64,000 bases of DNA, taken from positions 139,945 to 203,944 of the forward strand of contig JBAZKH010000001.1 in assembly GCA_041650935.1 (NCBI GenBank). The letters run 5' to 3'. A program made the position numbers and the translations under genes. Origin of the DNA: Candidatus Omnitrophota bacterium (lineage in GTDB: Bacteria > Omnitrophota > Gorgyraeia > 2-01-FULL-45-10). Of this stretch, positions 3,314 through 50,848 are shown piece by piece. The notes under the pieces are model-generated. The model ran no database searches, had not been told where the DNA came from, and saw nothing but the letters and a program-made list of their open reading frames with translations. The stretch's first letter is position 1. Each line of letters opens with the position of its first letter.

Positions 3314-3318
3314 AATCT

Positions 3319-3338
3319 GTTTCCACCCCGGGGTGGAA
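3319..3338 (+). terminator. GC palindrome TTTCCACCCCGGGGTGGAA after the SBP gene
   Basis: Perfect inverted repeat CCACCCCGGGGTGG. The same 16-mer TTTCCACCCCGGGGTG recurs at 13419. Confidence 0.5.
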
Positions 3339-3387
3339 TACCAAAGCGACCGAGGACATGACCCATAGATTTATAGAGTAAAATTAT

Positions 3388-4371
3388 ATGCTCAGGTACA
3401 TCGCAAAAAGACTGATCGGACTTGTGCCAGTATTCTTCGGGATTACACTGATATCGTTCTTCGTAATCCATCTTGCCCCGGGGAAGCCGACGGATGTCGA
3501 TACGAGCCTCAATCCGAAGGTATCGTATGAAGCGAGGATGCGGCTCGAAAAATTGTACGGATTCGACAAACCGATTCACGTACAGTATTTGAACTGGCTC
3601 AAGGCGTTTGTGTTCTTTGACTTCGGCTCCTCCTTCGTTGACGGCAGACCCGTAGCGGAGAAGATAGCGGAACGCATACCGGTAACGCTCCTTATAAATA
3701 TATCGTCGATGATATTGATGCTGAGTATCGGTATACCGCTGGGCATCCTCTCGGCCGTGAAACGCGGCTCGCTCCTCGACAGGACGACGACGATCGTTAC
3801 CTTCATCGGTTTTTCCGTACCCGAGTTCTGGCTGGCCCTTCTTTTAATGAGCTTTTTTGCGATAACGCTGGGCTGGCTGCCCATATCCGGGATAAAATCG
3901 CTCGACTTCGAATACTATTCGCTTGCCGGCAAGATACTGGATGTGGCAAGGCACCTCGTCCTGCCCGTCGCGATCGCCGCGTTCGGAAGCCTCGCAGGCA
4001 TTTCCAGATATACGAGGTCGGCCATGATTGGTGTTATCCACCAGGATTATATAAGGAGCGCCCGCGCAAAAGGCCTGAGTGAGCGCATCGTGATATACCG
4101 GCACGCCCTGAAGAATGCGATGCTGCCGGTTATAACGATCCTGGGCCTTTCGGTCCCGGGTCTCATCGGCGGCAGCGTCATATTCGAATCGATATTTGCC
4201 ATACCGGGGATGGGCAGGCTCTTCTACGAATCCGTAATGGCGCGGGATTATTCGACGATAATGGGCATCCTCTCGATAGGGGCGATATTGACGCTATTGG
4301 GCAATTTTCTCGCCGACATTGCATACTCTTATGCCGACCCGAGAATACGCGTTACGGGGAGCGGCGAATGA
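3388..4371 (+). CDS. ABC transporter permease (OppB/DppB-like)
   Basis: 327 aa polytopic membrane protein. The N-terminus [24 protein letters not shown] is the OppB/DppB family signature. Confidence 0.9.
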
Positions 4372-5198
4372 AGACATTTTTAAAGAATAAGGCGGCGTTT
4401 GCATCGTTACTCTTTATAGCGATGATAATACTCTTCGCGTTCTTCGCGCCGCTTGTCGCCCGGCACGACCCGTCCGCCATCGATACAAACTCGATCCTCG
4501 CCGCGCCGTCCGGCGCGCACATATTCGGGACGGATACTCTCGGCCGCGACATATTTGCCCGCATCGTATACGGCTCCAGGATCTCGCTCGCTATCGGGTT
4601 TATCGCCGTCGGAATCGCGGTACTTATAGGCACGGTCTTCGGTTCGATCGCCGGATATTACGGCGGAAAGGCCGACTCGATAATGATGCGGTTCGTCGAT
4701 ATCATGCTCTGCTTCCCGGCGTTCTTCCTGATCCTTGCCGTTATAGCGGTACTCGAACCGTCGATATTTAACATCATGGCCGTCATAGGATTGACGAGCT
4801 GGATGGGCGTTGCCCGGCTGGTGAGGGCTGAGGTGATGACGCTTAAAGAGCGCGACTTCGTCTGGGCCTCGAAAGTTATGGGCGCAAGCGACACATGGAT
4901 AATAGCGCGGCACCTCATTCCCAATGCCATCGGCCCGGTGTTTGTCAGCGCTACGCTCGGAATAGGCGGAGCGATCCTGACCGAATCCGCATTAAGTTTT
5001 CTTGGGATAGGTGTCCAGCCTCCGACGCCCAGCTGGGGCAATATACTTATGGACGGAAAATCGACACTTGGCGTGGCGTGGTGGCTCACTATATTCCCCG
5101 GGTTATTCATACTGTTTACGGTCTTGTCATATAACCTCCTGGGCGAGGGCTTAAGAGATGCTTTAGAGCCAAAATTGAAGGAGTTATCCACAAAGTAG
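4368..5198 (+). CDS. ABC transporter permease (OppC/DppC-like)
   Basis: 276 aa with an OppC-like N-terminus and BPD_transp_1 core. Overlaps the previous gene by 4 nt. Confidence 0.9.
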
Positions 5199-5220
5199 CT
5201 GACGTTTAAACGTCAGCTAC
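5181..5220 (+). repeat. ~40-bp element GAGTTATCCACAAAGTAG + GTTTAAAC-centred hairpin (copy 1); supplies the last codons and stop of the permease gene
   Basis: GAGTTATCCACAAAGTAGCTGACGTTTAAACGTCAGCTAC. Perfect palindrome AGCTGACGTTTAAACGTCAGCT. Near-identical copy at 10898..10937. Confidence 0.6.
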
Positions 5221-5231
5221 TATCAGACACC

Positions 5232-6017
5232 ATGAAAATATTGCAGATCGAAGATCTAATGGTATATTTTGGGCCGCAGAAACGTCCCTTAAGGGCTGTT
5301 GACGGCGTAAGCTTCGAAATAGAGCGGAATAAAGTCTTCGGGCTGGTCGGAGAATCCGGGTCGGGCAAGACACTTACGGCACTCTCCATCATTAAGTTAA
5401 TTCCCGAAGGCGCTTACTTTGCCGGAGGCAGGATCTTATTCAACGAAAAAGATCTCCTGGCCGCAGAAGATGAGTACCTTCGCAAGCTTAGGGGGTCGAA
5501 GATATCGATCGTTTTTCAGGATCCCGCCAGTTCCTTAAACCCGGTCTTCACCGTCGGATACCAGATAGCTGAGGCGATCCTCGCCCATCAGGATATCGGG
5601 ACCCCCTCGGCCGTAGAGCTTGCGCTTGAATTTTTGCGCAAGGTCCACATAGCCGATCCCAAAAGAGTGTTCCACGATTATCCGCACCAGCTCTCGGGCG
5701 GGACGAAACAGCGCATAAGTATAGCGATGGCGCTCGTCAACTCTCCGGAGCTTGTGATTCTCGACGAGCCGACGACGGCCCTCGATGTTACGATACAGGC
5801 GCAGATCCTGGATCTTCTTACCGAGATAAGAGAGAAAGAGAAATTGTCCATGCTTTTCATAAGCCACGATTTCGGAATAATTGCCAGGATGTGCGATGAA
5901 GTGGGCGTCATGTATAAAGGAAATATGGTCGAGCGCGGCCCGACCAAACAAGTTTTAACCAGCCCGAAAGAGCCATACACAATATCGCTGTTGGAATCGG
6001 TAAAGGCGTTTATATGA
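5232..6017 (+). CDS. ABC transporter ATP-binding protein (OppD/DppD-like)
   Basis: Walker A GESGSGKT, signature LSGGTKQR, Walker B ILDEPTTALD. Confidence 0.9.
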   Translation: MKILQIEDLMVYFGPQKRPLRAVDGVSFEIERNKVFGLVGESGSGKTLTALSIIKLIPEGAYFAGGRILFNEKDLLAAEDEYLRKLRGSKISIVFQDPASSLNPVFTVGYQIAEAILAHQDIGTPSAVELALEFLRKVHIADPKRVFHDYPHQLSGGTKQRISIAMALVNSPELVILDEPTTALDVTIQAQILDLLTEIREKEKLSMLFISHDFGIIARMCDEVGVMYKGNMVERGPTKQVLTSPKEPYTISLLESVKAFI

Positions 6018-6751
6018 TAATGGTAAAATGCGACAGCCTGACGAAGTCTTTCCCGGTATTCAAGGGTTACCTGAAGGAAAGGGCGGGTGAGGTGACGGCG
6101 GTTGATAACGTCTCCCTGCAGATAGAGCGGGGCGAGATGTTCGGTCTTGTCGGAGAATCGGGGAGCGGAAAGACGACGCTGGGTAAGATTATCCTCGGCA
6201 TCCTGAAGCCGGATTCAGGGAACGTGGAACTCGCGACCGGCAGGCTTAACGTAATATTCCAGGATCCGTACAATTCCCTCGATCCGAAGATGAGAGTTGG
6301 TGACATAATAGCGGAAGGGCTGGTCGTTAGGAGACCGGAGACCAAAGACCGGGTAGGGGAAGCGCTCGAACTCGTCAAACTGCCGCGGACGGCCGCGACT
6401 AAATATCCGCACCAGTTCTCCGGAGGGGAACGGCAGAGGATAGCGATAGCGAGGGCTGTTATTACAAAGCCCGAACTCATCGTCTGTGACGAGCCCGTCT
6501 CGAGCCTCGATGTCACGGTCCAGCTCCAGATATTGAATCTTTTGAAAGGTATACAGAAAGAATCCGGCATTACGTATCTCTTCATAAGCCATGACCTCAG
6601 GGTTATAAAATATATGTGCGGCAGGGTTGCTGTTATGAAGGCGGGCAGGATCGTCGAAGAGAATACGACAAGATCCTTATATTCGACGCCCGCGCATCCT
6701 TATACAAAACTTCTCCTATCGTCTATTCTGTCCTATGATTACTCAAGATAA
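6014..6751 (+). CDS. ABC transporter ATP-binding protein (OppF/DppF-like)
   Basis: Walker A GESGSGKTT, FSGGERQR, Walker B CDEPVSSLD. Confidence 0.9.
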   Translation: MIMVKCDSLTKSFPVFKGYLKERAGEVTAVDNVSLQIERGEMFGLVGESGSGKTTLGKIILGILKPDSGNVELATGRLNVIFQDPYNSLDPKMRVGDIIAEGLVVRRPETKDRVGEALELVKLPRTAATKYPHQFSGGERQRIAIARAVITKPELIVCDEPVSSLDVTVQLQILNLLKGIQKESGITYLFISHDLRVIKYMCGRVAVMKAGRIVEENTTRSLYSTPAHPYTKLLLSSILSYDYSR

Positions 6752-7421
6752 GATCAAGAAGATATTATCCGTTCTCGAATGTGCCTACGGCCGGCCGGAG
6801 CCGTTTAAGAGAGACAACCCCATCGATGTCCTTATACGCACGATCCTTTCGCAGAATACTACGGATAAGAATTCGCTCAAGGCATTTGCTGTGCTGAAAG
6901 CGGCCTTCAGGCCCTGGGATAAAGTGCTGGCCTCCGATGCAGGCAGGATAGCCGGGGTCATAAAACATGCGGGGCTCGCGAATATAAAAGCGCGGCGGAT
7001 CAAGAACGCGCTGGCCGAGATAAAAAAGCGCGAAGGGAAGCTTAGCCTGGTAAATCTACCCAGGTTAGATGCCGAAAGCGCCCTGGGTTACCTGACATCC
7101 TTGAAAGGGGTTGGACCGAAGACGGCGGCATGTGTACTTCTATTCAGTTTCGGCAGGCCTGTGATGCCGGTAGATACGCACATTTTCAGGGTAGCGCGGC
7201 GGTTGGGCCTGATAGATAAGAAAGTCGGTATAGAGGATGCTCATAAGATCCTGACAAAAATTATACCAAAGCACTTGATATGCCGTTTTCATTTATGTAT
7301 AATAGAACACGGTCGCAGGACCTGTAAGGCGCAAACCCCAAAGTGCGGGGTTTGTGTCGTTTATAGGCTGTGCAAGTTCGCAAGGAAGGAATACTGCAAA
7401 AGTTTAGCAGAGCAGGTTTAA
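6735..7421 (+). CDS. nth: endonuclease III-like DNA glycosylase (HhH-GPD, 4Fe-4S)
   Basis: HhH-GPD core (LKGVGPKTAACVL) and C-terminal Cys cluster CKAQTPKCGVCVVYRLC. Overlaps the ATPase gene by 17 nt. Confidence 0.75.
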   Translation: MITQDKIKKILSVLECAYGRPEPFKRDNPIDVLIRTILSQNTTDKNSLKAFAVLKAAFRPWDKVLASDAGRIAGVIKHAGLANIKARRIKNALAEIKKREGKLSLVNLPRLDAESALGYLTSLKGVGPKTAACVLLFSFGRPVMPVDTHIFRVARRLGLIDKKVGIEDAHKILTKIIPKHLICRFHLCIIEHGRRTCKAQTPKCGVCVVYRLCKFARKEYCKSLAEQV

Positions 7422-13470: not shown

Positions 13471-13498
13471 TTGACAAATCTTTCCTGTGTGGTAAACT
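13471..13498 (+). promoter_or_regulatory. sigma70-like promoter TTGACA-N16-TAAACT for the giant ORF
   Basis: TTGACA at 13471-13476 and TAAACT at 13493-13498, about 170 nt upstream of the SD AGGAGG and ATG 13671. Confidence 0.5.
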
Positions 13499-13670
13499 AC
13501 ACACAAGTTGTTTTATCCGCCTTCGCTAACTGACTTAAAATAACGGAAAGCTTCGGCGGACACTTTAATACAGAATGTAACAGCGAACGCTTGGCAAAAT
13601 TGCCGGGCGTTTTTTATTTTTATAAAAGAGTTTAATAAGTCGAAATACTACAAAACAGGAGGAGCTATAA

Positions 13671-16600
13671 ATGAAGAATAAGATATTAATAAAATCTTTG
13701 AGTATAGTCGTTTTATGCGCATTTCTATTTAACGATCTCGCCTATGGCCTGAGTCCTATAGTCGTGTCGGGCCCCGATGGTGGAGGCTCCGGCACCAGAG
13801 ATGACATGTACGCCCTCGGCAAGAAGTTATTTGCCGCGAAGTGGCTCGGTCCCGGCTCAATCGGTGCGATGGACATGTCCCGTGTTGGTATCCCGAAATT
13901 TCGCGGAACCGCCCCGAAGATAAAGAACGTCTCAAATTTCCGCAGGGTGACTTACCGGGAAGACATGGAATTTCCCGCCGGCTGGTCAAATAACAAAGTG
14001 AATAGGGAGTTGCTAAAGTCTCGGGACCTCATCTCTGCCCTCAGATGTTTCAGGAAGAATGAAGCCGCAATATCGGGTGAATTCCTATCTATCGAAGAAG
14101 GGTATTTTGAACCGGAGCGGAAGGGTGAACTGCCGATAGCCAGGACGGAAATACTTGATAACGGCATGCTTAAGCTCATCGTACATACGGAATTTGTCCA
14201 GATGTGGGACGATCTGCTGGCCCGCGATATATGGTTCGATCACACCTTCCCGGACGGTAAGACCAGGACCGTGAGCGCTGCGTGGGCGCTATTTTACCGC
14301 CTGGCCAAGCACGAGATGGCGGATAGGGTTAAGGTAGGAGCGTATCATAAAGGCGGAGGGCACATATCAAGCTTTTCTTTCGGGAGCATTCCCGAAATAT
14401 TCAGCAATGAGTTTTCGGCAAACGAGATCGGCGGGCGATATAATATCATAAACGACGCTATATGGCTCTGGTATCTGGGCTCTTATTCCTATACCAACAA
14501 GACGAGATACAATAATAGAACCGCGAAGGCGAGGTACAACTGGATATTTAACGGTAAGAAGGCTAAGGAGCTTGAGCTCGACCAGGAATTTCCCAATCTT
14601 CGCGGCGGCGAAAACAAGGCAAATAGGGAATTTGCCATCAAGCTGGCCCTGAATATAAATAAGACGTGTTTTGAAAAAGGTAGAATAGTGTGGGAGACCG
14701 TAGTCGATCAAAAATTCATCGATGCCTACGAACGGCGACGACAGAGGATTTATTCTGTCCTACCCGCTACCGGCCGCGACGATGATCGAAAGCCGCGCGC
14801 GCATGACCGTTGGGCCAGGGGTGAGGCCGGGCCGGCTAAGAAAGATCTTGCCGCGGCCAGCGTCGACGATATCACGGCGCTTCTAAGGAAGTATGGCCTT
14901 AAGCCGGCTACTATATCCGAACGCGAATGGATAGCTAGTGTCGCGTCGATGCTGTGTGTGGAAGCAGGCTTTTCGAAGATTGCCCCGCTGGTGAATAAAC
15001 TGTGCTTAGTGCAGGACCTCGGGCGTTATATCGAGGATACAGAACCGGAACTTTACGGGCGGGTAAAGGCAGCTTTTAAAAAGCATGGGCTGGAGACTAC
15101 CGCGGATGCGCTTATAGATGCCGCGAAAGAAGCCGGTTTTACCGATATGATGGATTTCGCAAGAAATGTTATAGGCGGCGAGATAGAGTGGAATCCAAAG
15201 ACCGAAGAAGCCGCCCGCGGATTGGCCGATCATGAAAATAGGACCTTGGAATTACTGGAAGATGAGGGTTATTCTATAGGGCAGTTCGAAGTAAACCTCA
15301 TACCTGCGCACCATGATTTTTCCAAGCTATCTACCGAAACTACGCCGGTAAAGCGGGCTATTACGGCGGCTATCCGGCTGGCGCTTATACTCAATTATTC
15401 TAACAGGAATAAAGGCGATTCGATGGAAGCGGTAGAGAGTTTTATGGTTAGCAGGATTAACACGGAAGGTATGGCCGGGTATGGTATAGATGCGATGCAG
15501 AACTACCGCAGGCTGCTTGCAGCGGAAGGCGGCCAGCTTTTAGCGAGAATAAGAGAAGCGCGGGCGGCATATTCCGCCGATTCTGTCATAAGAGAAGGTG
15601 ATGCGGAATTTTTGGCATCTCTGCAGGGACGATTAATGTCCGGCGAACCACCTGTTGCCGGTGCAGGGTCGGACGGATCTGTTATTGAAGGCAAACTCAC
15701 TATAGGTGACCTTAATAGAGCGGTCATAAGAGAGATAAATAGTGATTCCGGCATAACAGTATCGGATGCAGAAGGATATATAGAATTATGGGGAAACTTT
15801 ATTGCGGAGCACGCCGCGGAGAACACGACTGTTAATATCTCGGATATCGAGAACATTCTTGCCAGTAAGGGCGAAGAGACTATTGGCTGGCGCGAAAGTA
15901 TAAGAGCATTAATAACTCCTTTATCTGTTGGGATAGGTATTGTATGGGGCTATACAGGCTTTTGGTATATAGCGGCAATGCATTATGTCGCAGGGGCAGT
16001 ATTTTTTGGCGATTTTATATATAACAATTTCATAAAAGGGAAGGATGAAAAAGAGGGTTTTGCGGCTCTGGCAGGATACCTCAGGAAGGCCAAGTTGGGC
16101 GTGCCGGGCCAGGCAGTGACTTTCTTCGCGATAGGAACCCCATCCGTTACGCCGAAAGCAACCCTGGCGAATCTGACCATAGATGCCCTTACCGGAGAAA
16201 TTACAAAAGCGCTGAAACATGACTTTAGCCTGACAATTTGGGATAGATTTAGATATGGGGAGTTGTGGGGCAAAGTCATTGAAAAGTATGGAGAAAATGC
16301 GGCCATTAGTATTTCAAATATAGAGAAGGGCCTTATTAATAAGAGAAGCCGGCTCATCGGATGGTGCGGTGCAGGAATAGCTGCAGGCTGTGTATTTGGC
16401 GCTGCAGGCGTCCTTTGCGGTATCGCCGTTCCTTGGGCAACGGCATTATTTGATTTAATTACAGTATATTATTCGATAGAGGGTATCTTTGGGCTTGTCG
16501 GCACTAGACAGCAAGACTTAGCTGCGCTGGCAGGCTACCTTAAAAAAATTGAGTATGAGTTGAGGAGCCAAGAGGCAGGAGAGGCAGTGGAAACGCCTGC

Positions 16601-19600
16601 TCAACCACAGCGTGATGACAAACACAGCCCTGGCGAGCCGCCGACGGCGGGATCGATCGACGGAGTAAAGCCGTCCGACCTTGCCATACATCCGATGCTG
16701 AATGCGCTTATTAATAAATATTTGCAAGGCGGGAATGGAAATGCTTGCGTATCAGAAGATATAAAGACCCCGTTTTTTGACAAACTTTACTTGCTGGGAG
16801 ACGCTAATGATTTTACGTTCCGGGATATTTTCGACAAGCTTGTCAACCGGGAAATGCGAGAGCAGCATATGAACCGGCCGGATGCGGAAGCCGCATTGGT
16901 CATACAGCTTGTAAACCACTACAGAAGCTATGCCCATATTAACAGGCATATGGTCGAAGCGTTCAAGAACCAGCTTGCCCAGCAGGTCGAGCATTTCGGC
17001 GTCTACCATAACGGCGCCATATACGTTATGCGCGGGCTTATAGGAAGTAAAGATGAGATAATACAGCATGCGGTCCTGGAGTGCCGTATCCATAGAGAAT
17101 GCGCTGAAAGCCTGGATTATAACGGTCAAGGCGCGGAATCGGCCTACCGGTCGTGGAGAGATCCAATAGACAGCCGGGAGATGGACGTAAATGTCGCTAT
17201 TCCCGAACACGGCATTAATATAAGAGGGCGAATGACGTATAAGCGGTTTGTCGACCTGGCTTATGACGCCGCGGAGAAAGCGTATCCTCTATCGAGCCTG
17301 ATCCCAAAAAATAAACGGCATAAGCTGGGCGACCTGAGCTATGCCCTGCCCGGTGAACCACCTGTTGCCGGTGTAGGGTCGGACGGCGCCGGCGCTGAAA
17401 GTAAACTTACCATAGACGACCTTACTAGGGCGGTTATACGCAGTATAAATGATGACCCCAGCCTGACGGAATCAGTTATAGAGGGATATGTAGACTTGTG
17501 GAACGATTTTATTCAAGAGCGTCCTGAGGATAATGCGACCGTTAATATCTCGGATATCAAGAAGGCTCTTGCCGAGAAGAACGAACAGCTTACTCCTTTG
17601 GCCGGGGTTGTTATAGAAGCGACTACGGCCGCTATATTTTTTGCCGTAGGTGTCATATGGAGCATCACGGGCCCTTGGTATGTGGCGGCAATATATTATG
17701 CCATAAGTACAGGATTTCTTGCCGATTCCATAAATAATTATCTTTCTCATCATAAACAAAAAGACTTCATGGCGCTGGCAGGCTACCTTAAAAAAATTGA
17801 GTATGAGTTGAGGAGCCAAGAGGCAGGAGAGGCAGTGGAAACGCCTGCTCGGATGCCCGAAGAAACCGACCGGCGGATAAAGCGCGGTAAGTCCCCGGAT
17901 TGGGCGCTCACTGTAATTGCGCTCTCCGGCCTGGAAGAAATTACGATAAAAGATTATTTGGATCAATTTGACTGGGCGATAGAAGAGTATCCGGAGTTTG
18001 ACCTTGACGTCCGCGCCGAAAAGAAGCCGGAATCTACCGCAAGGAGAGACCTTTACCTAAACCCCCGTTCGTTGGAAATAATGGGTATCATCGAACCCGC
18101 AAGCCGTCTTCCGGGCTCGAGGGAATATAGGTGGCGATTGACGGAAAAAGGAAGACGCCTGGCAGAGCTTACCGTCCGGATGAGGAAAAAGATCGAGGAA
18201 GCCTGGCAGATAGTCCCGTCCGGCATACGATGTGATGGAACTACGAGCGAAGAGCTGATTATTGTGGAGGACGATAAAAAAGTTTTAGAGAGCGAACTTA
18301 AAAGCCTGCTTAGATTAAATGGCCGTGACCTTGCGCAAAAATTAGCGGCGGCAAGGTTGGAAGATAGATGTGAAATCGATGACATTCTCAGAGATTTAAG
18401 TGGTAATGCCCGCGTCTCGGAAAAACTGCGTACTTGTATAGAAGATGCGAAGGCCGCGGCGGCGGAGTTTAACAAAGTAACGTCGATGCTGGAACCGCGG
18501 AAAGCCGGCGTGAAGCGCCGTGAGCCGCCTACGATGCAGGAAAAACTTGAGCCGGAGGAGTTTTTTGCGCAAAATAGGACTAAAAATGCAGAGCCCATTA
18601 AGCCGATGAGCAGCCTGCCATATAGTCACGATGACAACATAAGGTTTATGTCCCAAACAGGAAAAGAACGACAGCTTGCGCCCCAAAACTCTGCCGAACC
18701 TGCGCGTATAAGCGTGGGCGGGTCGGAGAAAACCGAAGCCATATCCGTTCCATCATTGGCCGATATCCGCAATATTAGCAGTGCTTTTGCTGCAAGATTA
18801 CCAAGTAATTTTCCGGATTCTTTTAGAACAAGACGCGATCTTCGATTGTGGATGCTCAACGATATCCAATCTTTAAGAGCGCAGTTTTTAGAAAATATGG
18901 CAAGAGCAGGGGGCTATAAAAAGACAGATGTGATGTATCCGCAATATTCAGGCTGGGCTATTGAATGTGATAATAAACGATCTGAAGCTGAAAGGGTATA
19001 TGGAATACTATTCGGCGAAGGGGAAGCGAAACCGGCCCGGCCGCGCGACAACGCCCGCTTTGATTACAAATCTCCCGGCAGTCCGGCGCATTACCTGCTT
19101 TATATAGGGTTATATCCACCCATTCCCACGGGATGGAAGCCTCGGACATTAACCAGCGCCCACTTTTCGCAGATGGGGAAGATCAGTGACAGGACATTGC
19201 GGCGGGACAGAAAGTTTTTAGAAGATATTGGGTATCTGGACATAGAAAAGCCTACCTGGCTTACGGAGAAGGGTTACGCGGAAGCATGTGATTTTGCAGG
19301 CAGGCTGAAAACATTAGCCGCGCAGGTTAAGCCCGGTTACTCTGGGGATAGCCGTCTACTTGTACAGGATTTGATAAAAGAAGCAAATCCCCAAATACTT
19401 TCCGAAATCAAGAAGATGAACGACAAACTTCGGGCGGAAGCAAAATCAGTCCGGTTGAGCAAAGCTGACCAACGGAAAAGACTCGCTGCCATACTATCCG
19501 CAGCGAAGATAAAAGATCTGACCGCCCGCGTCACAGCATTAATATACTTACGGGACAATCTGCCCCGGGAGACTAAAAGAGAAGACGAAAAACTGAAGCG

Positions 19601-22600
19601 GTCCATTGTCGAAATAGCCGGTCAGAATGATAACCTGGCCGCCCGCGTCACAGCGTTGGCATACTTAAGAGATGTTCTGCCGTCAAGGACCGAGATCGAG
19701 TCCGAAAAGCTGTGGCAGTCCATCTGTGCAATAGCGACTCAGAAAAAAGATCTCACAGCCCGCGTCATGGCGTTGATATATATGAGGGATGAGTATGATC
19801 CCGACATTGACGCTGATAAACGCCAGGAAAAGCTCTGGAACTCTATCGGTAAAATAGCACGCCAGAAAAAAGACCTCACAGCCCGCGTCACAGCGCTTAT
19901 GTTTTTAAAAAGTCCAGACAGATGGGTACAACATGAATTCTCGCGGCTAGCACCGGATGGTGAACTTTTATATTTTTATCGTGATAGTGATAGGCGAAGA
20001 GCTAGCCCTATCCGTGAGATAGCTAACCAGGATAAAGACCTCACAGCCCGCGTTGCGGCGTTGATATGTCTGAGGAATGGAGGAGATTATAACTGTGAAG
20101 AACTCTGGCAGTCTATCCGTAGAATAGCCCACCAAAAGAGAGACCCTGTAGCCCGTGTCACAGCGTTGATATATATGAGAGATAATACACCGGAAATTGC
20201 CGGGGATGAACGCGAGCGCTTATTGCAAAGAATTCAAGGTAAAGAACCGGCCTCTGTATCCGTGCCTCGATTCGATTGGGTGGATACGTTAAGTCGCGCC
20301 GAAAGGAAGGAGATAGTAGACAATCTTGCACTTACAGATGAGCAAATAGCCGATAGAACCATCTTAAGGGCGGCTATTGCAGCGGTGACTGCGAATACAG
20401 AACAAGATAAAAAACAGGCAATGATTGTGCTCGCATGCCGTTTCCAGGAATTAGATGGCGATGGCTCGTACGCCGCCGCAGAACGCGCAGAACAGTCAAT
20501 AAAAGATATTCGCCGCGAAATAGATAACAAGGGAGAGATCGACCGGCGCACGGAATCCGGCAAGGGACAGGCAGCGGAAACACCTGCCCGGCCGCGCGAT
20601 GGAAATGACCGTTCTTGGAATGGCCATATAACGGAAGGCGATATAAGGATGCACGCGGATGTGGGTAATTCGGAAGATATTAACTGGCTTGTTGATGCCA
20701 GCGCTAACCAGCCCGATATGGTGGAGAAAATACTCACTGAGCCTAAATACGCCGCTGTACGCAAGCAGTATAAAGTGGCGCTAGCGAAATTACCATCAAT
20801 GCAATGGGGGATAAAAGATTTTACTAGTATGGCGCAATTCCTAGGAAAACATGCGGCTTCTTTTAAGAAACAGGTTGGTGGGTTCCATTTTTACATAGGA
20901 GTACCGGAACACTCGGATCAGCGTTCACTTAAAACATCTTTCATTTCTTATAACGCCAATTTTGGGAAAGGAATGAGCTATACTTTCCGAAAAGAACCGT
21001 CCGGAGAGATTTCGTTGATAGTCAATCGTGCTATATGTGATGGCATGGGGGAATCACATATTTTTACAATAAATGAAAACATGATACGAGAGGAATACGG
21101 ATCCAGGGCAGAGGTTATAGAAAATGGCTTGATAAAGGGATTTGTGTCCAAAGATGGGTGTTTGTATGTTCTTGTTAGTCATGCTGGGAAGGAATTTGCA
21201 AAAAATTATATACCTGAATTTGACCCTGAATATAAGTTTGTGTCTTTTGTCGAATCAATGCCCGGTACAGTAGTGACGACGCCGGTACTGGAGACGGATG
21301 TAGCGAAAACTGCGCAAGCTGCGACAGGTGTGTCAGCGGATGCGCAAGAAGTAACGCAACCAGAAGCAGAAGATCTCGAGAACCTCCATTATTATTGGCT
21401 TGCATTGGGAGCCGCCCAGCGAGAAGCAATAATTGAAAATATCGCTGAAGTTACTCTCAGAAGAGTGTCCTATGCCGATACTGATTTGTTGTACAGTGTA
21501 GCGGCAAGGGTAGGAGCCAAGATGCCGAACGAAATTAATCAGGCTATGGCAATGATTGTCAGATGTTTTAAATCGAGAGGAAAAGATGACACGGCCGCTC
21601 AAAAAACAGCGGAAGAGCTGGTGGAACTTGTCAACACGGCCTTAAATGCCATTAAGACACTCCCCGAACAAAGAATAAGGTTTCAATCTGCATTAGATGG
21701 AGCACGTAATAGGCTAACTGCAGAACAAATGGGTGTGAGATTCCCTGTTGCGCAACCCGCGGTAAATGAAAAACCCCAGGCCGCGGCAATATCAGATACT
21801 GCGACAGAATTGGTCGAGTTGATGGCAAAGAGAGATGCTTTGCCGGAGAGCGCCGACCTGCTTGTGGTCTTTGGCAGTCCGGATGCCGAAATGGTCGCGG
21901 CGGAAGCGGCTAAAATGTATCGTGAGCGTAAGATATCGCGTATATTGGTTTCCGGGAAATACGGAAAACATTGCACCCCGTGTGCGGATAACGGTGACTT
22001 TGGACGTGATAAGGATGGTAACATCGTCAGGGCGGAGGCATTAATAATGAGAGATGCTATTATTGCCGCCGGAGTGCCGGAGTCATCGATCCTGGTTGAA
22101 AAAGAATCCCAGGGGATGACCGATAACGGAGTATTTTCCGTGAATAAATTAATAGAGGCGAATATTGTGCCCAAAACGGTCATTTTTATGCATGCGCCCC
22201 TTATGCAGTTAAGAGGCTCGTTGGCTCTTCGCAATGCCTTGGCGCAAAATAAGATAGAAGCCGCGGTATACGATTATGCGGCGTCTATTCCCGTAAACCC
22301 TTCCGAAAAATTAAGCGCTATTATTTGGCAGGCAGGCCGGCTGGATATTGAAATCGAGCCGATCGTCGGCAAAGAGAGATATGCTCAAATAATACTTCTG
22401 CTGGAGAGCCTGAGGATGCCTGAAAAGAGCGCGGGGGAGCAGTCCGCGACTGGAATGAATATGCCGGTTGCAAACGAAGTCAATGTGGCCGAAGCGAAAC
22501 CGGCCCAGCCTGCGGTGCGCGCGGGCGGCAGGGCAAATAATTTAATCGAAATATCCGAATTAAATCAACATATCGTAGAATTGGAAGCGATGGCTTCCAG

Positions 22601-23828
22601 AGGGAAGTATGTTGCAGATGAACTTGCGGTTGCTCATGAACGGCTTTTAGCGCTTGCGAAAGCTGCAGCGGTCAATGCGCAAGAAGTAACACAACCCGCC
22701 GCGCAGGAAGCCGAAAACGCATCGGTTGCGCAGCCCACTTTAGAAGAGCTCACGGTGGAGATGTCCAGTGGAGCCACTGCGGTTGACTGGATGCCGGTGT
22801 GGGAAAACGTACTGCAAATGGTTTTAAGCAAAAAAGTGTACGGTTCTGCCGTAACAATAAGAGAATATATGGAGTGTAATGATGTTGATCGCGAAACGAC
22901 TGTTACTGCACTTTCTGAACTTGTTAGGCAAGGTTATTTAGTGCGATCTAATATTATAAGGTGGAGTTACGATCTTACGCCAAAAGCTGCCGTTGAAATA
23001 TTATGTGCACAAGCAATAGCTGAACAAGGGCTGGATACGGACGAATTCTGGAGCGCCCGCGCCGCGGCTATAAAAGATACGAAGAATAGAGCCATCATTA
23101 AGGCGATATCGGATTTCACCGCTCGGCAAGGTCCGAATGCGGGCCCGGGCGCTATGATCCCGCTTTCGAAGACGACGACGCTCAGCATCTGGCAGATAGT
23201 AAACCTGGCCCATCAAAACAGGATAGAGATCTTCCGGCCCCAGGAGGACGGCCGTTCCGCCGGCATGAAGAAGGCCCTTGATACTATCGAAAAGCGGAGA
23301 GGGGATATCATAAGCGATAGATTCTACACCGGGAATAATCTCGAGGCGATGCTTAGGGACCCGGCCAAAAAGGGCACATTAAGGATAGTACTCACCACAA
23401 ACGCGGAATCGAAGAGACTTGTGGAAGCCCTGTCCAGGAAAGATGTTACGCTATTTAAGTCTACGCGGCTATTGAATCTGACGCTTCCCAGGGAGTACAG
23501 CGCATATCTTCCGAACTCTAAGGAGAGGACGTACTACCAGGCGAAGATGATATTCGAAGCCATACTGGCGCGGTTATATGAAAAGGGCAAGACGCCTATG
23601 GTCGAGCTTATCATGAGGAGCGTCTTCGAAGGCCGCATAGATGGCGGTATGGATAAATTCCTGGAGACATTGGCCGAGGCCGAAGACGAAAAGGATAATC
23701 CCGACCCGGAGAAGATAAAGATAAGGATCGAAAACTGTCTTAACATAATCGTGAGGCTTTCCGAGGAAGTGGCCAGGTCGATCGAGCATTTGAAGTTGAT
23801 CATGAAGGAGTTCTGGACAGCGGCGTAA
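13671..23828 (+). CDS. giant secreted/membrane multidomain protein (3385 aa) of unknown function
   Basis: Single uninterrupted ORF with SD AGGAGG 8 nt upstream. N-terminal signal peptide. Two paralogous modules with hydrophobic helices, ~7 HEAT-like repeats, a DUF218/YdcF-like domain, winged-helix-like segments. No recognisable enzymatic core over most of its length. Confidence 0.85.
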   Translation: MKNKILIKSLSIVVLCAFLFNDLAYGLSPIVVSGPDGGGSGTRDDMYALGKKLFAAKWLGPGSIGAMDMSRVGIPKFRGTAPKIKNVSNFRRVTYREDMEFPAGWSNNKVNRELLKSRDLISALRCFRKNEAAISGEFLSIEEGYFEPERKGELPIARTEILDNGMLKLIVHTEFVQMWDDLLARDIWFDHTFPDGKTRTVSAAWALFYRLAKHEMADRVKVGAYHKGGGHISSFSFGSIPEIFSNEFSANEIGGRYNIINDAIWLWYLGSYSYTNKTRYNNRTAKARYNWIFNGKKAKELELDQEFPNLRGGENKANREFAIKLALNINKTCFEKGRIVWETVVDQKFIDAYERRRQRIYSVLPATGRDDDRKPRAHDRWARGEAGPAKKDLAAASVDDITALLRKYGLKPATISEREWIASVASMLCVEAGFSKIAPLVNKLCLVQDLGRYIEDTEPELYGRVKAAFKKHGLETTADALIDAAKEAGFTDMMDFARNVIGGEIEWNPKTEEAARGLADHENRTLELLEDEGYSIGQFEVNLIPAHHDFSKLSTETTPVKRAITAAIRLALILNYSNRNKGDSMEAVESFMVSRINTEGMAGYGIDAMQNYRRLLAAEGGQLLARIREARAAYSADSVIREGDAEFLASLQGRLMSGEPPVAGAGSDGSVIEGKLTIGDLNRAVIREINSDSGITVSDAEGYIELWGNFIAEHAAENTTVNISDIENILASKGEETIGWRESIRALITPLSVGIGIVWGYTGFWYIAAMHYVAGAVFFGDFIYNNFIKGKDEKEGFAALAGYLRKAKLGVPGQAVTFFAIGTPSVTPKATLANLTIDALTGEITKALKHDFSLTIWDRFRYGELWGKVIEKYGENAAISISNIEKGLINKRSRLIGWCGAGIAAGCVFGAAGVLCGIAVPWATALFDLITVYYSIEGIFGLVGTRQQDLAALAGYLKKIEYELRSQEAGEAVETPAQPQRDDKHSPGEPPTAGSIDGVKPSDLAIHPMLNALINKYLQGGNGNACVSEDIKTPFFDKLYLLGDANDFTFRDIFDKLVNREMREQHMNRPDAEAALVIQLVNHYRSYAHINRHMVEAFKNQLAQQVEHFGVYHNGAIYVMRGLIGSKDEIIQHAVLECRIHRECAESLDYNGQGAESAYRSWRDPIDSREMDVNVAIPEHGINIRGRMTYKRFVDLAYDAAEKAYPLSSLIPKNKRHKLGDLSYALPGEPPVAGVGSDGAGAESKLTIDDLTRAVIRSINDDPSLTESVIEGYVDLWNDFIQERPEDNATVNISDIKKALAEKNEQLTPLAGVVIEATTAAIFFAVGVIWSITGPWYVAAIYYAISTGFLADSINNYLSHHKQKDFMALAGYLKKIEYELRSQEAGEAVETPARMPEETDRRIKRGKSPDWALTVIALSGLEEITIKDYLDQFDWAIEEYPEFDLDVRAEKKPESTARRDLYLNPRSLEIMGIIEPASRLPGSREYRWRLTEKGRRLAELTVRMRKKIEEAWQIVPSGIRCDGTTSEELIIVEDDKKVLESELKSLLRLNGRDLAQKLAAARLEDRCEIDDILRDLSGNARVSEKLRTCIEDAKAAAAEFNKVTSMLEPRKAGVKRREPPTMQEKLEPEEFFAQNRTKNAEPIKPMSSLPYSHDDNIRFMSQTGKERQLAPQNSAEPARISVGGSEKTEAISVPSLADIRNISSAFAARLPSNFPDSFRTRRDLRLWMLNDIQSLRAQFLENMARAGGYKKTDVMYPQYSGWAIECDNKRSEAERVYGILFGEGEAKPARPRDNARFDYKSPGSPAHYLLYIGLYPPIPTGWKPRTLTSAHFSQMGKISDRTLRRDRKFLEDIGYLDIEKPTWLTEKGYAEACDFAGRLKTLAAQVKPGYSGDSRLLVQDLIKEANPQILSEIKKMNDKLRAEAKSVRLSKADQRKRLAAILSAAKIKDLTARVTALIYLRDNLPRETKREDEKLKRSIVEIAGQNDNLAARVTALAYLRDVLPSRTEIESEKLWQSICAIATQKKDLTARVMALIYMRDEYDPDIDADKRQEKLWNSIGKIARQKKDLTARVTALMFLKSPDRWVQHEFSRLAPDGELLYFYRDSDRRRASPIREIANQDKDLTARVAALICLRNGGDYNCEELWQSIRRIAHQKRDPVARVTALIYMRDNTPEIAGDERERLLQRIQGKEPASVSVPRFDWVDTLSRAERKEIVDNLALTDEQIADRTILRAAIAAVTANTEQDKKQAMIVLACRFQELDGDGSYAAAERAEQSIKDIRREIDNKGEIDRRTESGKGQAAETPARPRDGNDRSWNGHITEGDIRMHADVGNSEDINWLVDASANQPDMVEKILTEPKYAAVRKQYKVALAKLPSMQWGIKDFTSMAQFLGKHAASFKKQVGGFHFYIGVPEHSDQRSLKTSFISYNANFGKGMSYTFRKEPSGEISLIVNRAICDGMGESHIFTINENMIREEYGSRAEVIENGLIKGFVSKDGCLYVLVSHAGKEFAKNYIPEFDPEYKFVSFVESMPGTVVTTPVLETDVAKTAQAATGVSADAQEVTQPEAEDLENLHYYWLALGAAQREAIIENIAEVTLRRVSYADTDLLYSVAARVGAKMPNEINQAMAMIVRCFKSRGKDDTAAQKTAEELVELVNTALNAIKTLPEQRIRFQSALDGARNRLTAEQMGVRFPVAQPAVNEKPQAAAISDTATELVELMAKRDALPESADLLVVFGSPDAEMVAAEAAKMYRERKISRILVSGKYGKHCTPCADNGDFGRDKDGNIVRAEALIMRDAIIAAGVPESSILVEKESQGMTDNGVFSVNKLIEANIVPKTVIFMHAPLMQLRGSLALRNALAQNKIEAAVYDYAASIPVNPSEKLSAIIWQAGRLDIEIEPIVGKERYAQIILLLESLRMPEKSAGEQSATGMNMPVANEVNVAEAKPAQPAVRAGGRANNLIEISELNQHIVELEAMASRGKYVADELAVAHERLLALAKAAAVNAQEVTQPAAQEAENASVAQPTLEELTVEMSSGATAVDWMPVWENVLQMVLSKKVYGSAVTIREYMECNDVDRETTVTALSELVRQGYLVRSNIIRWSYDLTPKAAVEILCAQAIAEQGLDTDEFWSARAAAIKDTKNRAIIKAISDFTARQGPNAGPGAMIPLSKTTTLSIWQIVNLAHQNRIEIFRPQEDGRSAGMKKALDTIEKRRGDIISDRFYTGNNLEAMLRDPAKKGTLRIVLTTNAESKRLVEALSRKDVTLFKSTRLLNLTLPREYSAYLPNSKERTYYQAKMIFEAILARLYEKGKTPMVELIMRSVFEGRIDGGMDKFLETLAEAEDEKDNPDPEKIKIRIENCLNIIVRLSEEVARSIEHLKLIMKEFWTAA
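19480..20200 (+). other. array of ~7 degenerate 36-45-aa alpha-helical repeats, HEAT-like/PBS-lyase-like, inside the giant ORF
   Basis: Recurrent ...EKLWQSI..IA.QKKDLTARVTAL[IM]YLRD... in the translation. Confidence 0.55.
21860..22330 (+). other. DUF218 (YdcF/SanA/ElyC-like) domain embedded in the giant ORF
   Basis: LLVVFGSPDAEM...AAKMYRERKISRILVSGKYG...AEALIMRDAIIAAGVPESSILVEKESQGMTDNGVFS...KTVIFMHAPLMQLRG follows the DUF218 spacing (VLG...SGG...EA..M..GVP...E..S.nT.eN...H..R). Confidence 0.55.
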
Positions 23829-50772: not shown

Positions 50773-50848
50773 GGGGCAGTAGCTCAGCTGGGAGAGCACC
50801 ACGTTCGCAACGTGGGGGTCGTGGGTTCGAATCCCATCTGCTCCACCA
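50773..50848 (+). tRNA. tRNA-Ala (anticodon CGC)
   Basis: Cloverleaf GGGGCAG/CTGCTCC acceptor stem with G3:U70. D-arm GCTC...GAGC. Anticodon stem CCACG/CGTGG with loop TTCGCAA. T-arm GTGGG TTCGAAT CCCAT. Encoded CCA. Confidence 0.9.

Follow-up and report, generated by a model that had tools for sequence, protein, structure and literature searches.

The window (i.e., the whole stretch of 64,000 nucleotides that was analyzed) contains a giant open reading frame (ORF; 13671..23828, + strand) whose 3385-aa product houses a DUF218 domain. An AGGAGG ribosome-binding site lies at 13657-13662, with the ATG 8 nt downstream, and the product is identical to the MAG-derived NCBI entry hypothetical protein WC522_00720 [Candidatus Omnitrophota bacterium]. 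The neighbors of the gene are housekeeping genes; nothing in this neighborhood linked it to genes for Und-P, peptidoglycan, or ECA, and an Rfam search of the 5' leader gave nothing close to threshold. The features of the ORF are as follows.

13671..13748, + strand: predicted Sec-type signal peptide, aa 1-26 (read from the family alignment and a hydropathy peak)
13671..14780, + strand: N-terminal cap (N-cap), aa 1-~370 (33-45% identity across family members)
15906..16040, + strand: hydrophobic hairpin 1, Gly/aromatic-rich, aa 746-790, about two membrane-span lengths (hydropathy)
16353..16505, + strand: hydrophobic hairpin 2, glycine-zipper-like, aa 895-945 (hydropathy)
16587..17495, + strand: internal module, aa 973-1275 (26-28% identity to P0003, P0004, P0014, and L007)
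17601..17735, + strand: hydrophobic hairpin 3, aa 1311-1355, part of a duplicated module (hydropathy)
19518..20191, + strand: about six HEAT-like repeats of ~39-41 aa each (..KDLTARVTALIYLRD..; internal repeat analysis)
21744..21782, + strand: Pro/Ala/Gln-rich linker (VAQPAVNEKPQAA) directly upstream of the DUF218 module
21783..22370, + strand: DUF218 (YdcF-type) structural module, aa 2705-2900 (Pfam, profile, model, and Foldseek)
22482..22526, + strand: linker downstream of the DUF218 module (AEAKPAQPAVRAG; AQPAV and EAKPA motifs)
23052..23825, + strand: C-terminal cap (C-cap), aa ~3128-3385 (25-44% identity, all full-length family members)

The signal peptide consists of a Lys-rich n-region, a hydrophobic core (hydropathy peak, aa 5-23), and AYG followed by LSP. 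The duplicated module with hairpin 3 is marked by a 242-nt repeat (15637/17347; 72% identity) and a 98-nt repeat (16505/17753; 93% identity), and the internal module at aa 973-1275 matches no known family. DUF218 is the only Pfam family above threshold in the protein, also after division into 400-aa tiles; besides it, the full-length and tile scans gave a repeat-driven, weak IBN_N match, which is the sole Pfam signal in the HEAT-like region, and a sub-threshold DUF739 match. Set off by Pro/Ala-rich linkers on both sides, the DUF218 domain is a self-contained module of ~200 residues, with one helix before and one after an alpha/beta core; the core as matched by Pfam spans aa 2729-2859 (nt 21855-22247). 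The motif AQPAV is present in both flanking linkers, and AQPAV and EAKPA also recur at further module borders of the protein. A preliminary description of this DNA had placed a DUF218 domain inside a 3385-aa polypeptide, as is indeed the case. Its range (21860-22330) covered the right stretch and was one base out of frame; the peptides that it quoted (LLVVFGSPDAE...MQLRG) are found at aa 2730-2849, nt 21858-22217.

A scan of the full 3385-aa protein with hmmscan found no DUF218 at E ≤ 1. All four excised pieces exceeded the PF02698 gathering score of 27.6 bits, at 31.3 to 33 bits (255 aa, E = 1.4e-7, 31.9 bits; 196 aa, 32.7 bits; 148 aa, E = 6.7e-8, 33 bits; a 400-aa tile, 31.3 bits). Giant proteins are underannotated in public databases because full-length HMM scans miss their domains. 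NCBIfam matched neither the DUF218 segment nor the whole protein. Among PDB sequences, the sole meaningful phmmer match was E. coli YdcF (3ca8; E = 0.0059, ~150 residues), and a profile built from the domain and 33 relatives matched YdcF only (E = 1.2e-28). An AlphaFold2 model of aa 2705-2900 (pLDDT, 93.9; pTM, 0.89) placed 3ca8_A/B at the top of a Foldseek search of the PDB (E = 6.5e-7; probability, 1.00; TM, 0.61), with the runner-up at E = 2e-3. In a 34-sequence alignment of DUF218 relatives, the domain retained the three family-invariant positions (G2762, E2789, and N2819) and nine near-invariant columns, including G2735, G2801, P2803, E2810, S2813, P2843, and R2848; the single deviation is that the usual S-x-N-T-x-E-N reads S-Q-G-M-T-D-N, with Met in place of the canonical Thr. 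Apart from this Met, the domain follows the DUF218 pattern of hhhhxG, an SGG-type glycine, E-A, GVP..I..E..S..T.EN, and P...R. The profile matches and the predicted model thus identify aa 2705-2900 as a DUF218 domain of the YdcF type that is intact and has a Rossmann-like alpha/beta fold. The domain assignment in the preliminary description and the spacing of conserved motifs that it listed were both borne out, as were the checks that it had proposed, a PF02698 scan of the segment and a structural comparison with YdcF.

The preliminary description had further characterized YdcF, SanA, and ElyC as small, stand-alone, envelope-associated proteins, and this description suits SanA and ElyC better than it suits YdcF: only SanA, ElyC, and YgjQ are membrane anchored with a periplasmic DUF218 domain, while YdcF is predicted to be cytoplasmic (PMC3879167, PMC12176290). 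On the basis of profile scores, the present domain belongs to the YdcF branch and not to the SanA/ElyC/YgjQ branch. The profile matched YdcF over its full length (103 bits; YdcF residues 16-191), and it matched YgjQ (41 bits), SanA (18 bits), and ElyC (16.5 bits) partially. With the single sequence, YdcF scored 19.9 bits, versus 4.5, 3.8, and -0.5 bits for the other three proteins. SanA function requires a Thr-His-Glu set (T125, H149, and E182; PMC12176290). In the alignment, Thr125 corresponds to Met2816 of the present domain and to Cys126 of YdcF, and H149 and E182 lie outside the alignable region. An N-terminal membrane anchor directly ahead of the domain, as in SanA, ElyC, and YgjQ, was not found by hydropathy; the closest hydrophobic stretch ends at aa 1355, ~1350 residues upstream of the domain start at aa 2705. 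Because the domain is of the YdcF branch, its identity is no indication of a role in envelope biogenesis.

A word-indexed search for homologues of the 255-aa segment found nothing, whereas an exhaustive HMMER search of 1.84 billion (1.84e9) representative proteins gave 101 matches. The nearest relatives lie nearly all within ~20 other proteins of 2-8 kaa. The best 8 of the 101 matches (self excluded) are in proteins of 873-7699 aa, except for one 274-aa entry, in which the match reaches the final residue; the 7699-aa partial Omnitrophota protein carries the NCBI name ElyC/SanA/YdcF family protein. A neighbor-joining tree and a motif table show that the domain sits in a DUF218 clade found almost only inside multi-kiloresidue proteins. 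The clade has a signature (SxxMxxN, SG[RK][YF]GK, and HxPxxx[LI]RG), and the Thr-to-Met change is common to all of it. The architecture is therefore unusual only against model organisms, contrary to the preliminary description; it is typical of Omnitrophota, not a one-off. Sister proteins carry cytidylate kinase, guanylate kinase, HEAT, and WD40 domains alongside DUF218 (HEAT repeats in P0016 and P0017). Since the host protein shares no other region with the DUF218-bearing giants, the DUF218 module appears to move independently. The two caps are absent from the other DUF218-bearing giants by BLAST and HMM, so these giants and the capped proteins described below form overlapping but distinct sets. 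The existence of such giants without caps also counts against the explanation that we prefer below.

Fourteen relatives of the host protein have only aa 1-~360 and ~3130-3385 in common with it. The 15 family loci found in species-representative genomes are all in Omnitrophota MAGs or MAGs labeled "uncultured Planctomycetia," and a profile search of a word-indexed database with the N-cap alignment added three fragments and no more. The shortest family member has 640 aa (caps only) and the longest 5171 aa, with complete two-cap members of 640, 786, 821, 1048, 1196, 1281, and 1333 aa, and the interior grows from ~85 aa in the 640-aa member to more than 4500 aa. Cargo located with coordinates in the relatives comprises enolase, aldolase II with ADH_N, 2-Hacid_dh, and PncA/PncB/NadE-type domains; across the family, interiors hold enolase, aldolase, an NAD-salvage pathway, kinases, or HTH modules, and P0006 has a GT9 heptosyltransferase domain. 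The host protein has the signal peptide and the ~360-aa N-cap at residue 1 and the ~250-aa C-cap at the very end, and HMMs of both caps match this ORF alone within the window. The alignments thus show that the host protein is one of a family restricted to Omnitrophota, whose members have a conserved predicted signal peptide, two caps, and a freely variable interior. No conserved neighbor or secretion/injection gene was found beside the family members. A polyprotein with a family-wide cleavage motif was down-weighted, because linker motifs are protein specific, varying between family proteins whereas the N-cap is conserved.

The N-cap invariants are K-H-E-x-x-D (aa 213-218), H231, and D262. Its fold is possibly zincin (minigluzincin)-like, with H231 and E247 as candidate third ligands, but Asp stands in place of the second His of the HEXXH motif. 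The N-cap had no credible match among Pfam or PDB profiles, and Foldseek returned nothing for its model, peptidases included. The C-cap, which has no Pfam or PDB match, has as invariants GPG, E, Q, and the terminus ...K-x-F-W-x-A-A-COOH. An autotransporter was considered for the C-cap and rejected, since the sequence appears helix-rich and charged and ends in -AA, not in an aromatic residue.

The topology was read from hydropathy and from a visual assessment of the signal peptide, not from a trained predictor. The signal peptide (conserved family-wide as A-x-G/A followed by L-S) and the three hydrophobic hairpins suggest export independently of the DUF218 identity, and an extracytoplasmic location of the host protein is plausible. 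A published survey that applied DeepTMHMM to giant proteins of Omnitrophota reported the same pattern of signal peptides and transmembrane helices. With a cleavable Sec signal and hydrophobic spans in even number, the DUF218 module would most likely end up outside the cytoplasmic membrane. The proposal in the preliminary description that the giant protein acts at the cell envelope is partly supported, by these export features and not by the identity of the DUF218 domain. For a YdcF-like domain, and for the kinases, NAD synthase, and enolase carried by the relatives, an extracytoplasmic site is awkward, since, to our knowledge, the periplasm contains no SAM, ATP, or NAD.

We consider it probable, though by no means assured, that the domain is a YdcF-type module carried as cargo in a capped, exported Omnitrophota protein. 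What the two caps do would be common to the family, with export, anchoring, or assembly as the likeliest roles, and the interior modules would be cargo, each acting on its own. By analogy with YdcF, which the PDB title of 3ca8 and works cited in PMC3879167 and PMC12176290 describe as SAM binding, the DUF218 module probably has a small molecule containing a nucleotide as its ligand or substrate, and it would act at the surface or in the periplasm of a nanobacterium that depends on a host. A surface or periplasmic cargo of the YdcF type would offer few clues to a SanA/ElyC kind of envelope biogenesis. The term "nucleotide-binding enzyme" is an extrapolation from one structure title and the fold, and, because Met replaces the Thr usual in S.NT.EN, the module may have a different chemistry or none. 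We know of no biochemical function for any YdcF-type DUF218.

The most probable of the other explanations, though a doubtful one, extends the cargo idea to a cargo-display or delivery chassis of Omnitrophota. The signal peptide, a zincin-like N-cap, and the C-cap would form a common export, anchoring, or processing unit, into which arbitrary cytoplasm-type enzymes and regulators (YdcF-type DUF218, NMP kinases, an NAD-salvage pathway, enolase, and sigma/HTH modules) would be recombined and then deployed outside, possibly into the host cell on which these nanobacteria depend; the giant-only DUF218 clade would be an enzyme of an effector type with a changed active-site motif. A related and unlikely alternative, with a logic analogous to that of MARTX toxins, is that the caps and hairpins bring cytoplasm-type cargo (DUF218, NMP kinases, NAD-salvage enzymes, and sigma/HTH regulators) to or into the host cell and that the N-cap may be a zincin-like protease that frees this cargo. 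The conserved ends around variable interiors, the linker motifs recurring at module borders, and the Sec signals on proteins whose enzymes need cytoplasmic cofactors all fit such a carrier, and Omnitrophota are thought to be host dependent or predatory. However, linkers that differ from protein to protein beside a conserved N-cap leave no common cleavage site, the N-cap has HExxD rather than HExxH and drew no peptidase in Foldseek, secretion/injection genes are not conserved beside family members, and the gene is located among housekeeping genes.

That the domain is instead a SanA/ElyC-like periplasmic factor acting on undecaprenyl-linked peptidoglycan or polysaccharide precursors, with the giant protein taking part in envelope assembly, seems to us quite unlikely. 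The predicted topology would place the domain beyond the cytoplasmic membrane, the side on which the DUF218 domains of SanA, ElyC, and YgjQ act, and the GT9 domain of P0006 is in keeping with an envelope role. On the other hand, YdcF is favored by 60-85 bits, SanA, YgjQ, and ElyC align over only ~80 residues, the Thr essential in SanA is Met here, the domain has no adjoining anchor, and the sister proteins carry nucleotide kinases and HEAT and WD40 repeats rather than envelope enzymes. Least probable of all is a DUF218 domain that is no longer catalytic and acts as a spacer, structural or ligand sensing, within a large protein of the surface coat. A Pfam score just ~5 bits over threshold, the Met for Thr in the most conserved motif throughout the giant-only clade, and a remainder in which no second enzyme family joins the hairpins, HEAT-like repeats, and unknown modules would agree with it. 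It is opposed by the retention of all three invariant and nine near-invariant positions, by the high confidence of the model, and by a clade signature strongly conserved among proteins that have no other region in common, which argues for selection for a specific, possibly altered, activity.

DUF218 is among the most widespread bacterial domains, and the giant-only clade provides functional clues to its chemistry (i.e., fusion to cytidylate/guanylate kinases and HEAT scaffolds) together with a naturally varied active-site motif. The capped family shows how Omnitrophota giants may be built, from a 640-aa two-cap core with unrelated modules inserted between the caps, and so small a core makes the origin and purpose of the giant genes of this phylum more tractable.

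Compared with known systems, the domain shares with YdcF its fold, the full-length profile match, an N-terminal helix with LA.RD.LP, a post-core Y.YA..P extension, and the lack of an adjoining membrane anchor. It differs in that YdcF is a 266-aa stand-alone cytoplasmic protein and not an internal module of a signal-peptide-bearing protein, in the low identity (~23%), in two motifs (STNCGEN and QDPTMQRR of YdcF are SQGMTDN and HAPLMQLR here), and in missing the last ~70 (C-terminal) residues of YdcF. With SanA, ElyC, and YgjQ, it has in common the Pfam family and, if the signal peptide is functional, probably the membrane side, but the profile match is partial and weak (16-41 bits), no transmembrane anchor adjoins the domain, and Thr125 of SanA is not conserved. 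MARTX toxins have conserved N- and C-terminal regions around variable, unrelated functional domains, and conserved ends likewise bracket a variable interior in the capped family. This likeness is one of analogy only: the capped proteins are without RTX/glycine-rich repeats, a cysteine protease domain, and a T1SS signal, their cargo consists of housekeeping-type enzymes, and homology to MARTX was not detected.

The nearest parallel within the phylum is offered by the multi-enzyme giant proteins of Omnitrophota (Nielsen & Lui 2026 preprint, class 1; West-Roberts et al. 2023; Seymour et al. 2023). None of these three surveys mentions DUF218 or a family defined by conserved N- and C-caps with a caps-only 640-aa member. 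They begin at ≥10 kaa or >20 kb, while the host protein has 3.4 kaa. Class 1 proteins in the 2026 preprint have at least 10 kaa and many distinct Pfam families tiling the polypeptide, whereas the host protein, at 3385 aa, has one Pfam family above threshold, although its capped relatives do carry several enzymes. Like those giants, the host protein combines HEAT scaffolding with intragenic repeats and strings a normally stand-alone enzyme domain on one chain with a predicted signal peptide and/or transmembrane helices.

The domain studied here lies within the following gene:

13671-23828, + strand, giant gene (10,158 nt), a single ORF encoding a 3385-aa protein

An AGGAGG sequence lies 8 nt 5' of its ATG, and the product is identical to the NCBI entry [quoted passage not shown] (710-kb contig). 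Pfam hmmscan reported no DUF218 domain for the full-length 3385-aa protein even at an E value of ≤1, which probably explains the label "hypothetical protein". When parts of the protein were scanned, however, the scores exceeded the curated PF02698 cutoff (27.6 bits): two excised segments scored 31.9 and 33 bits, aa 2705-2900 alone scored 32.7 bits, and a 400-aa tile scored 31.3 bits. Since the same residues score 32 to 33 bits when excised and are missed at full length, routine full-length annotation easily overlooks domains in very long proteins.

The preliminary description had proposed a DUF218 domain in this protein (the peptides it quoted correspond to aa 2730-2849, nt 21858-22217), and five lines of evidence confirm that the segment is one. 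The outcome that it named as refuting, the lack of a significant HMM match, does not arise as long as the segment is scanned by itself. The sole meaningful match of the domain sequence in the PDB was Escherichia coli YdcF (3ca8; E = 0.0059). An exhaustive HMMER search (query, aa 2690-2944; 1.84 billion representative proteins; E ≤ 1e-3) matched 101 proteins, 33 of which were aligned with the window domain (alignment A1). Pfam assigned PF02698 to 34 of the 34 A1 sequences, and the A1 profile matched YdcF (E = 1.2e-28) and no other PDB entry. An AlphaFold2 model built with A1 (pLDDT, 93.9; pTM, 0.89) retrieved two chains of the YdcF crystal structure as the top Foldseek matches in the PDB (E = 6.5e-7; probability, 1.00; TM, 0.61), and the runner-up was more than 3 orders of magnitude weaker. 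The window domain retains all the invariant A1 columns (G2762, E2789, and N2819) and 9 of the 9 near-invariant columns. An H-C-T-P-C (CxxC) motif is present at aa 2767-2771 (nt ~21969-21983), within an insertion loop typical of the subfamily; P0016 and P0017, the closest relatives, lack it.

The identity of the domain had also been taken as a hint of a cell envelope role, with YdcF, SanA, and ElyC all cited as envelope-associated proteins. E. coli has four DUF218 proteins, of which SanA, ElyC, and YgjQ are inner-membrane-anchored, have periplasmic domains, and affect the peptidoglycan/ECA balance (PMC3879167, PMC12176290). The attribution is thus correct for SanA and ElyC but not for YdcF, which these papers describe as a predicted cytoplasmic, SAM-binding protein with a nucleotide-utilizing alpha/beta fold. 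The four MG1655 sequences were scored with the A1 profile and with the single window sequence.

Scores of the four E. coli DUF218 proteins
YdcF: profile, 103 bits; single sequence, 19.9 bits; match over almost the whole profile
YgjQ: profile, 41 bits; single sequence, 4.5 bits; match of ~80 residues
SanA: profile, 18 bits; single sequence, 3.8 bits; match of ~80 residues
ElyC: profile, 16.5 bits; single sequence, -0.5 bits; match of ~80 residues

SanA function needs three residues, one of which is Thr125 (PMC12176290); the aligned position is Met2816 in the window domain and Cys126 in YdcF. Together with the scores, this substitution indicates that the window domain is of the YdcF type. Moving from DUF218 membership to an envelope function borrows the biology of the SanA/ElyC/YgjQ branch. 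The preliminary interpretation is partly right: it names the domain correctly but implies the wrong subfamily.

The architecture, previously considered unusual, is recurrent rather than unique. The eight best non-self matches of the exhaustive search comprised proteins of 2450, 2833, 2049, 7699, 3663, 873, and 6112 aa and one 274-aa entry, in which the DUF218 match extends to the last residue; further long matches included proteins of 2478, 4189, 2958, 2220, and 6362 aa. Within these proteins, the domain is N-terminal, internal, or C-terminal. The 7699-aa partial protein is HOW60018.1 ([quoted passage not shown]). A neighbor-joining tree placed almost only embedded DUF218 domains in a separate clade (signature, SxxMxxN, SG[RK][YF]GK, and HxPxxx[LI]RG), while a few other embedded copies clustered with stand-alone proteins of 200 to 300 aa, so DUF218 was captured into long proteins more than once. 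The window protein has nothing in common with the DUF218-bearing long proteins beyond this module, which therefore travels independently. Among the sister proteins, P0017 has the domain directly after a cytidylate kinase (HEAT repeats elsewhere), P0016 has two DUF218 copies along with HEAT repeats and a guanylate kinase, and P0024 has the domain after a WD40 propeller; the window protein likewise contains approximately six HEAT-like repeats. DUF218 inside a giant protein is not unusual in Omnitrophota.

The gene for P0017 (2833 aa), the closest DUF218-bearing relative, is located at L020 (GCA_964508905.1, CAZDVO010000002.1), directly downstream of a gene encoding 10,112 aa and upstream of a stand-alone CN_hydrolase plus NAD_synthase gene. 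Among the DUF218 proteins of at least 1400 aa, 17 of 22 end in -AA (9), -SA (6), -FA, or -VA; the short DUF218 proteins (n = 66) had no such bias. This small-residue or Ala-Ala C terminus resembles an ssrA-tag or tail-specific-protease recognition end and may be a sorting or processing signal common to these long proteins.

A whole-protein search retrieved 14 relatives (1982 to 5171 aa), each matching only ~11% of the window protein. By BLAST, the regions in common were aa 1 to ~360 (33 to 45% identity) and aa ~3130 to 3385 (25 to 44%), which in every case form the very termini of the two proteins compared; we refer to these as the N-cap and C-cap. The N-cap begins with a sequence-conserved signal peptide (Lys/Arg-rich n-region, hydrophobic core, and A-x-G/A followed by L-S) and has K-H-E-x-x-D, H231, and D262 as invariants. 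The C-cap invariants include GPG, E, and Q; the cap terminates in K-x-F-W-x-A-A, and all the members of the capped family end in F-W-x-[AYF]-A, an ending that may belong to the same putative sorting or processing signal. Neither cap matched Pfam or PDB sequences. The N-cap model (pLDDT, 75; core, mostly 80 to 95) had no Foldseek match, and its motif is HExxD instead of HExxH; for these two reasons, "zincin-like" is kept as a possible lead only.

Screening a single genome from each species yielded 15 capped-family loci, all from Omnitrophota MAGs or MAGs labeled "uncultured Planctomycetia". Complete members of 640, 786, 821, 1048, 1196, 1281, and 1333 aa keep both caps, the shortest being essentially the N-cap, 85 aa, and the C-cap. 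At least two genomes carry two copies each (L010/L014 and L012/L015), and locus L003 contains tandem paralogues (the 786-aa member at 3001-5361, then directly an N-cap ORF at 5538-7082).

Between the caps, long members carry enolase; class II aldolase plus ADH_N; 2-hydroxyacid dehydrogenase; PFK/PfkB/UPRT; alanine dehydrogenase; protein kinase plus RidA; a complete nicotinamidase, NAPRTase, and glutamine-dependent NAD synthetase series; and HTH module arrays, sigma-70 regions, and the RNA polymerase alpha CTD. No recognizable family besides DUF218 was found in the window protein. In P0011 (2432 aa), the whole NAD salvage route lies on one polypeptide (NAPRTase, isochorismatase-type nicotinamidase, NAPRTase_N, CN_hydrolase, and NAD_synthase domains; aa 663-2148). 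In P0002 (2190 aa), the N-terminal domain of enolase (1069-1118) comes after its C-terminal TIM-barrel domain (648-945), a reversed order that suggests a permuted or split enolase; this protein also has an H-E-R-G-H motif adjoining hydrophobic segments (~aa 441-566). In this picture, the two caps are constant and the modules between them are freely exchangeable. Pro/Ala/Glu-rich linkers set these modules apart; within a given protein, the linkers reuse short motifs (ETPARPRD, PGEPPVAG, and AQPAV in the window protein; SPDMAKEK in P0003; others in further members), and the motifs differ from protein to protein. At two module borders, a 98-nt direct repeat (16505-16602 and 17753-17850) encodes the identical 25-aa stretch ALAGYLKKIEYELRSQEAGEAVETPA; its 93% nucleotide identity indicates recent intragenic duplication or gene conversion.

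The N terminus of the window protein fits the positive-inside rule (N-in/C-out; A-x-G at -3/-1), and three hydrophobic Gly/aromatic-rich stretches of 40 to 50 residues are each of hairpin length. If the signal is cleaved and the spans are even in number, all the large parts of the protein, including DUF218, would be located outside the cytoplasmic membrane, as judged from hydropathy. Such a location fits poorly with the cofactors that YdcF-like, kinase, and NAD-synthase modules require, a tension that keeps an effector delivery reading alive; a 2026 preprint noted the same tension for its own Omnitrophota giants.

The giant gene is surrounded by housekeeping genes on the same strand: an aconitase-family leuC-like gene, isopropylmalate/isocitrate dehydrogenase, asd, truA, and a HAD hydrolase on the 5' side and rplM, argC, argJ, argB, and argD on the 3' side. 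Almost every long ORF of the window is on the + strand, and the GC skew is positive over the full 64 kb; the window also contains one tRNA-Ala(CGC) (50773-50848) and ORFs at 42604-45420 (938 aa) and 45422-47743 (773 aa). The 254-nt spacer preceding the giant gene (13471-13670 inspected) contains a promoter-like TTGACA-16-TAAACT with an extended TG, an ~110-nt structured stretch (fold z-score, -3.8), and a terminator-like strong hairpin plus T-run (13585-13612) ~58 nt 5' of the start codon. It matched no Rfam family (best E, 0.23); it could terminate the upstream truA/HAD unit, encode a small RNA, or serve as an attenuator-type leader of the giant gene.

Most likely, the DUF218 segment is a functional YdcF-type module that binds a nucleotide or SAM and that an exported, cap-defined modular Omnitrophota protein carries as independent cargo. 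The DUF218 call itself is ordinary annotation. Giant genes in general were described in earlier papers, and the 2026 preprint reported "multi-enzyme metabolic cluster" giants of at least 10 kaa from Omnitrophota, most of which have signal peptides, transmembrane helices, or both; DUF218 is mentioned in neither. The giant-only DUF218 clade, whose core motif is altered, and the cap/cargo family (640 to >5000 aa) appear to be undescribed, and they provide concrete handles on how and why Omnitrophota builds giant proteins.
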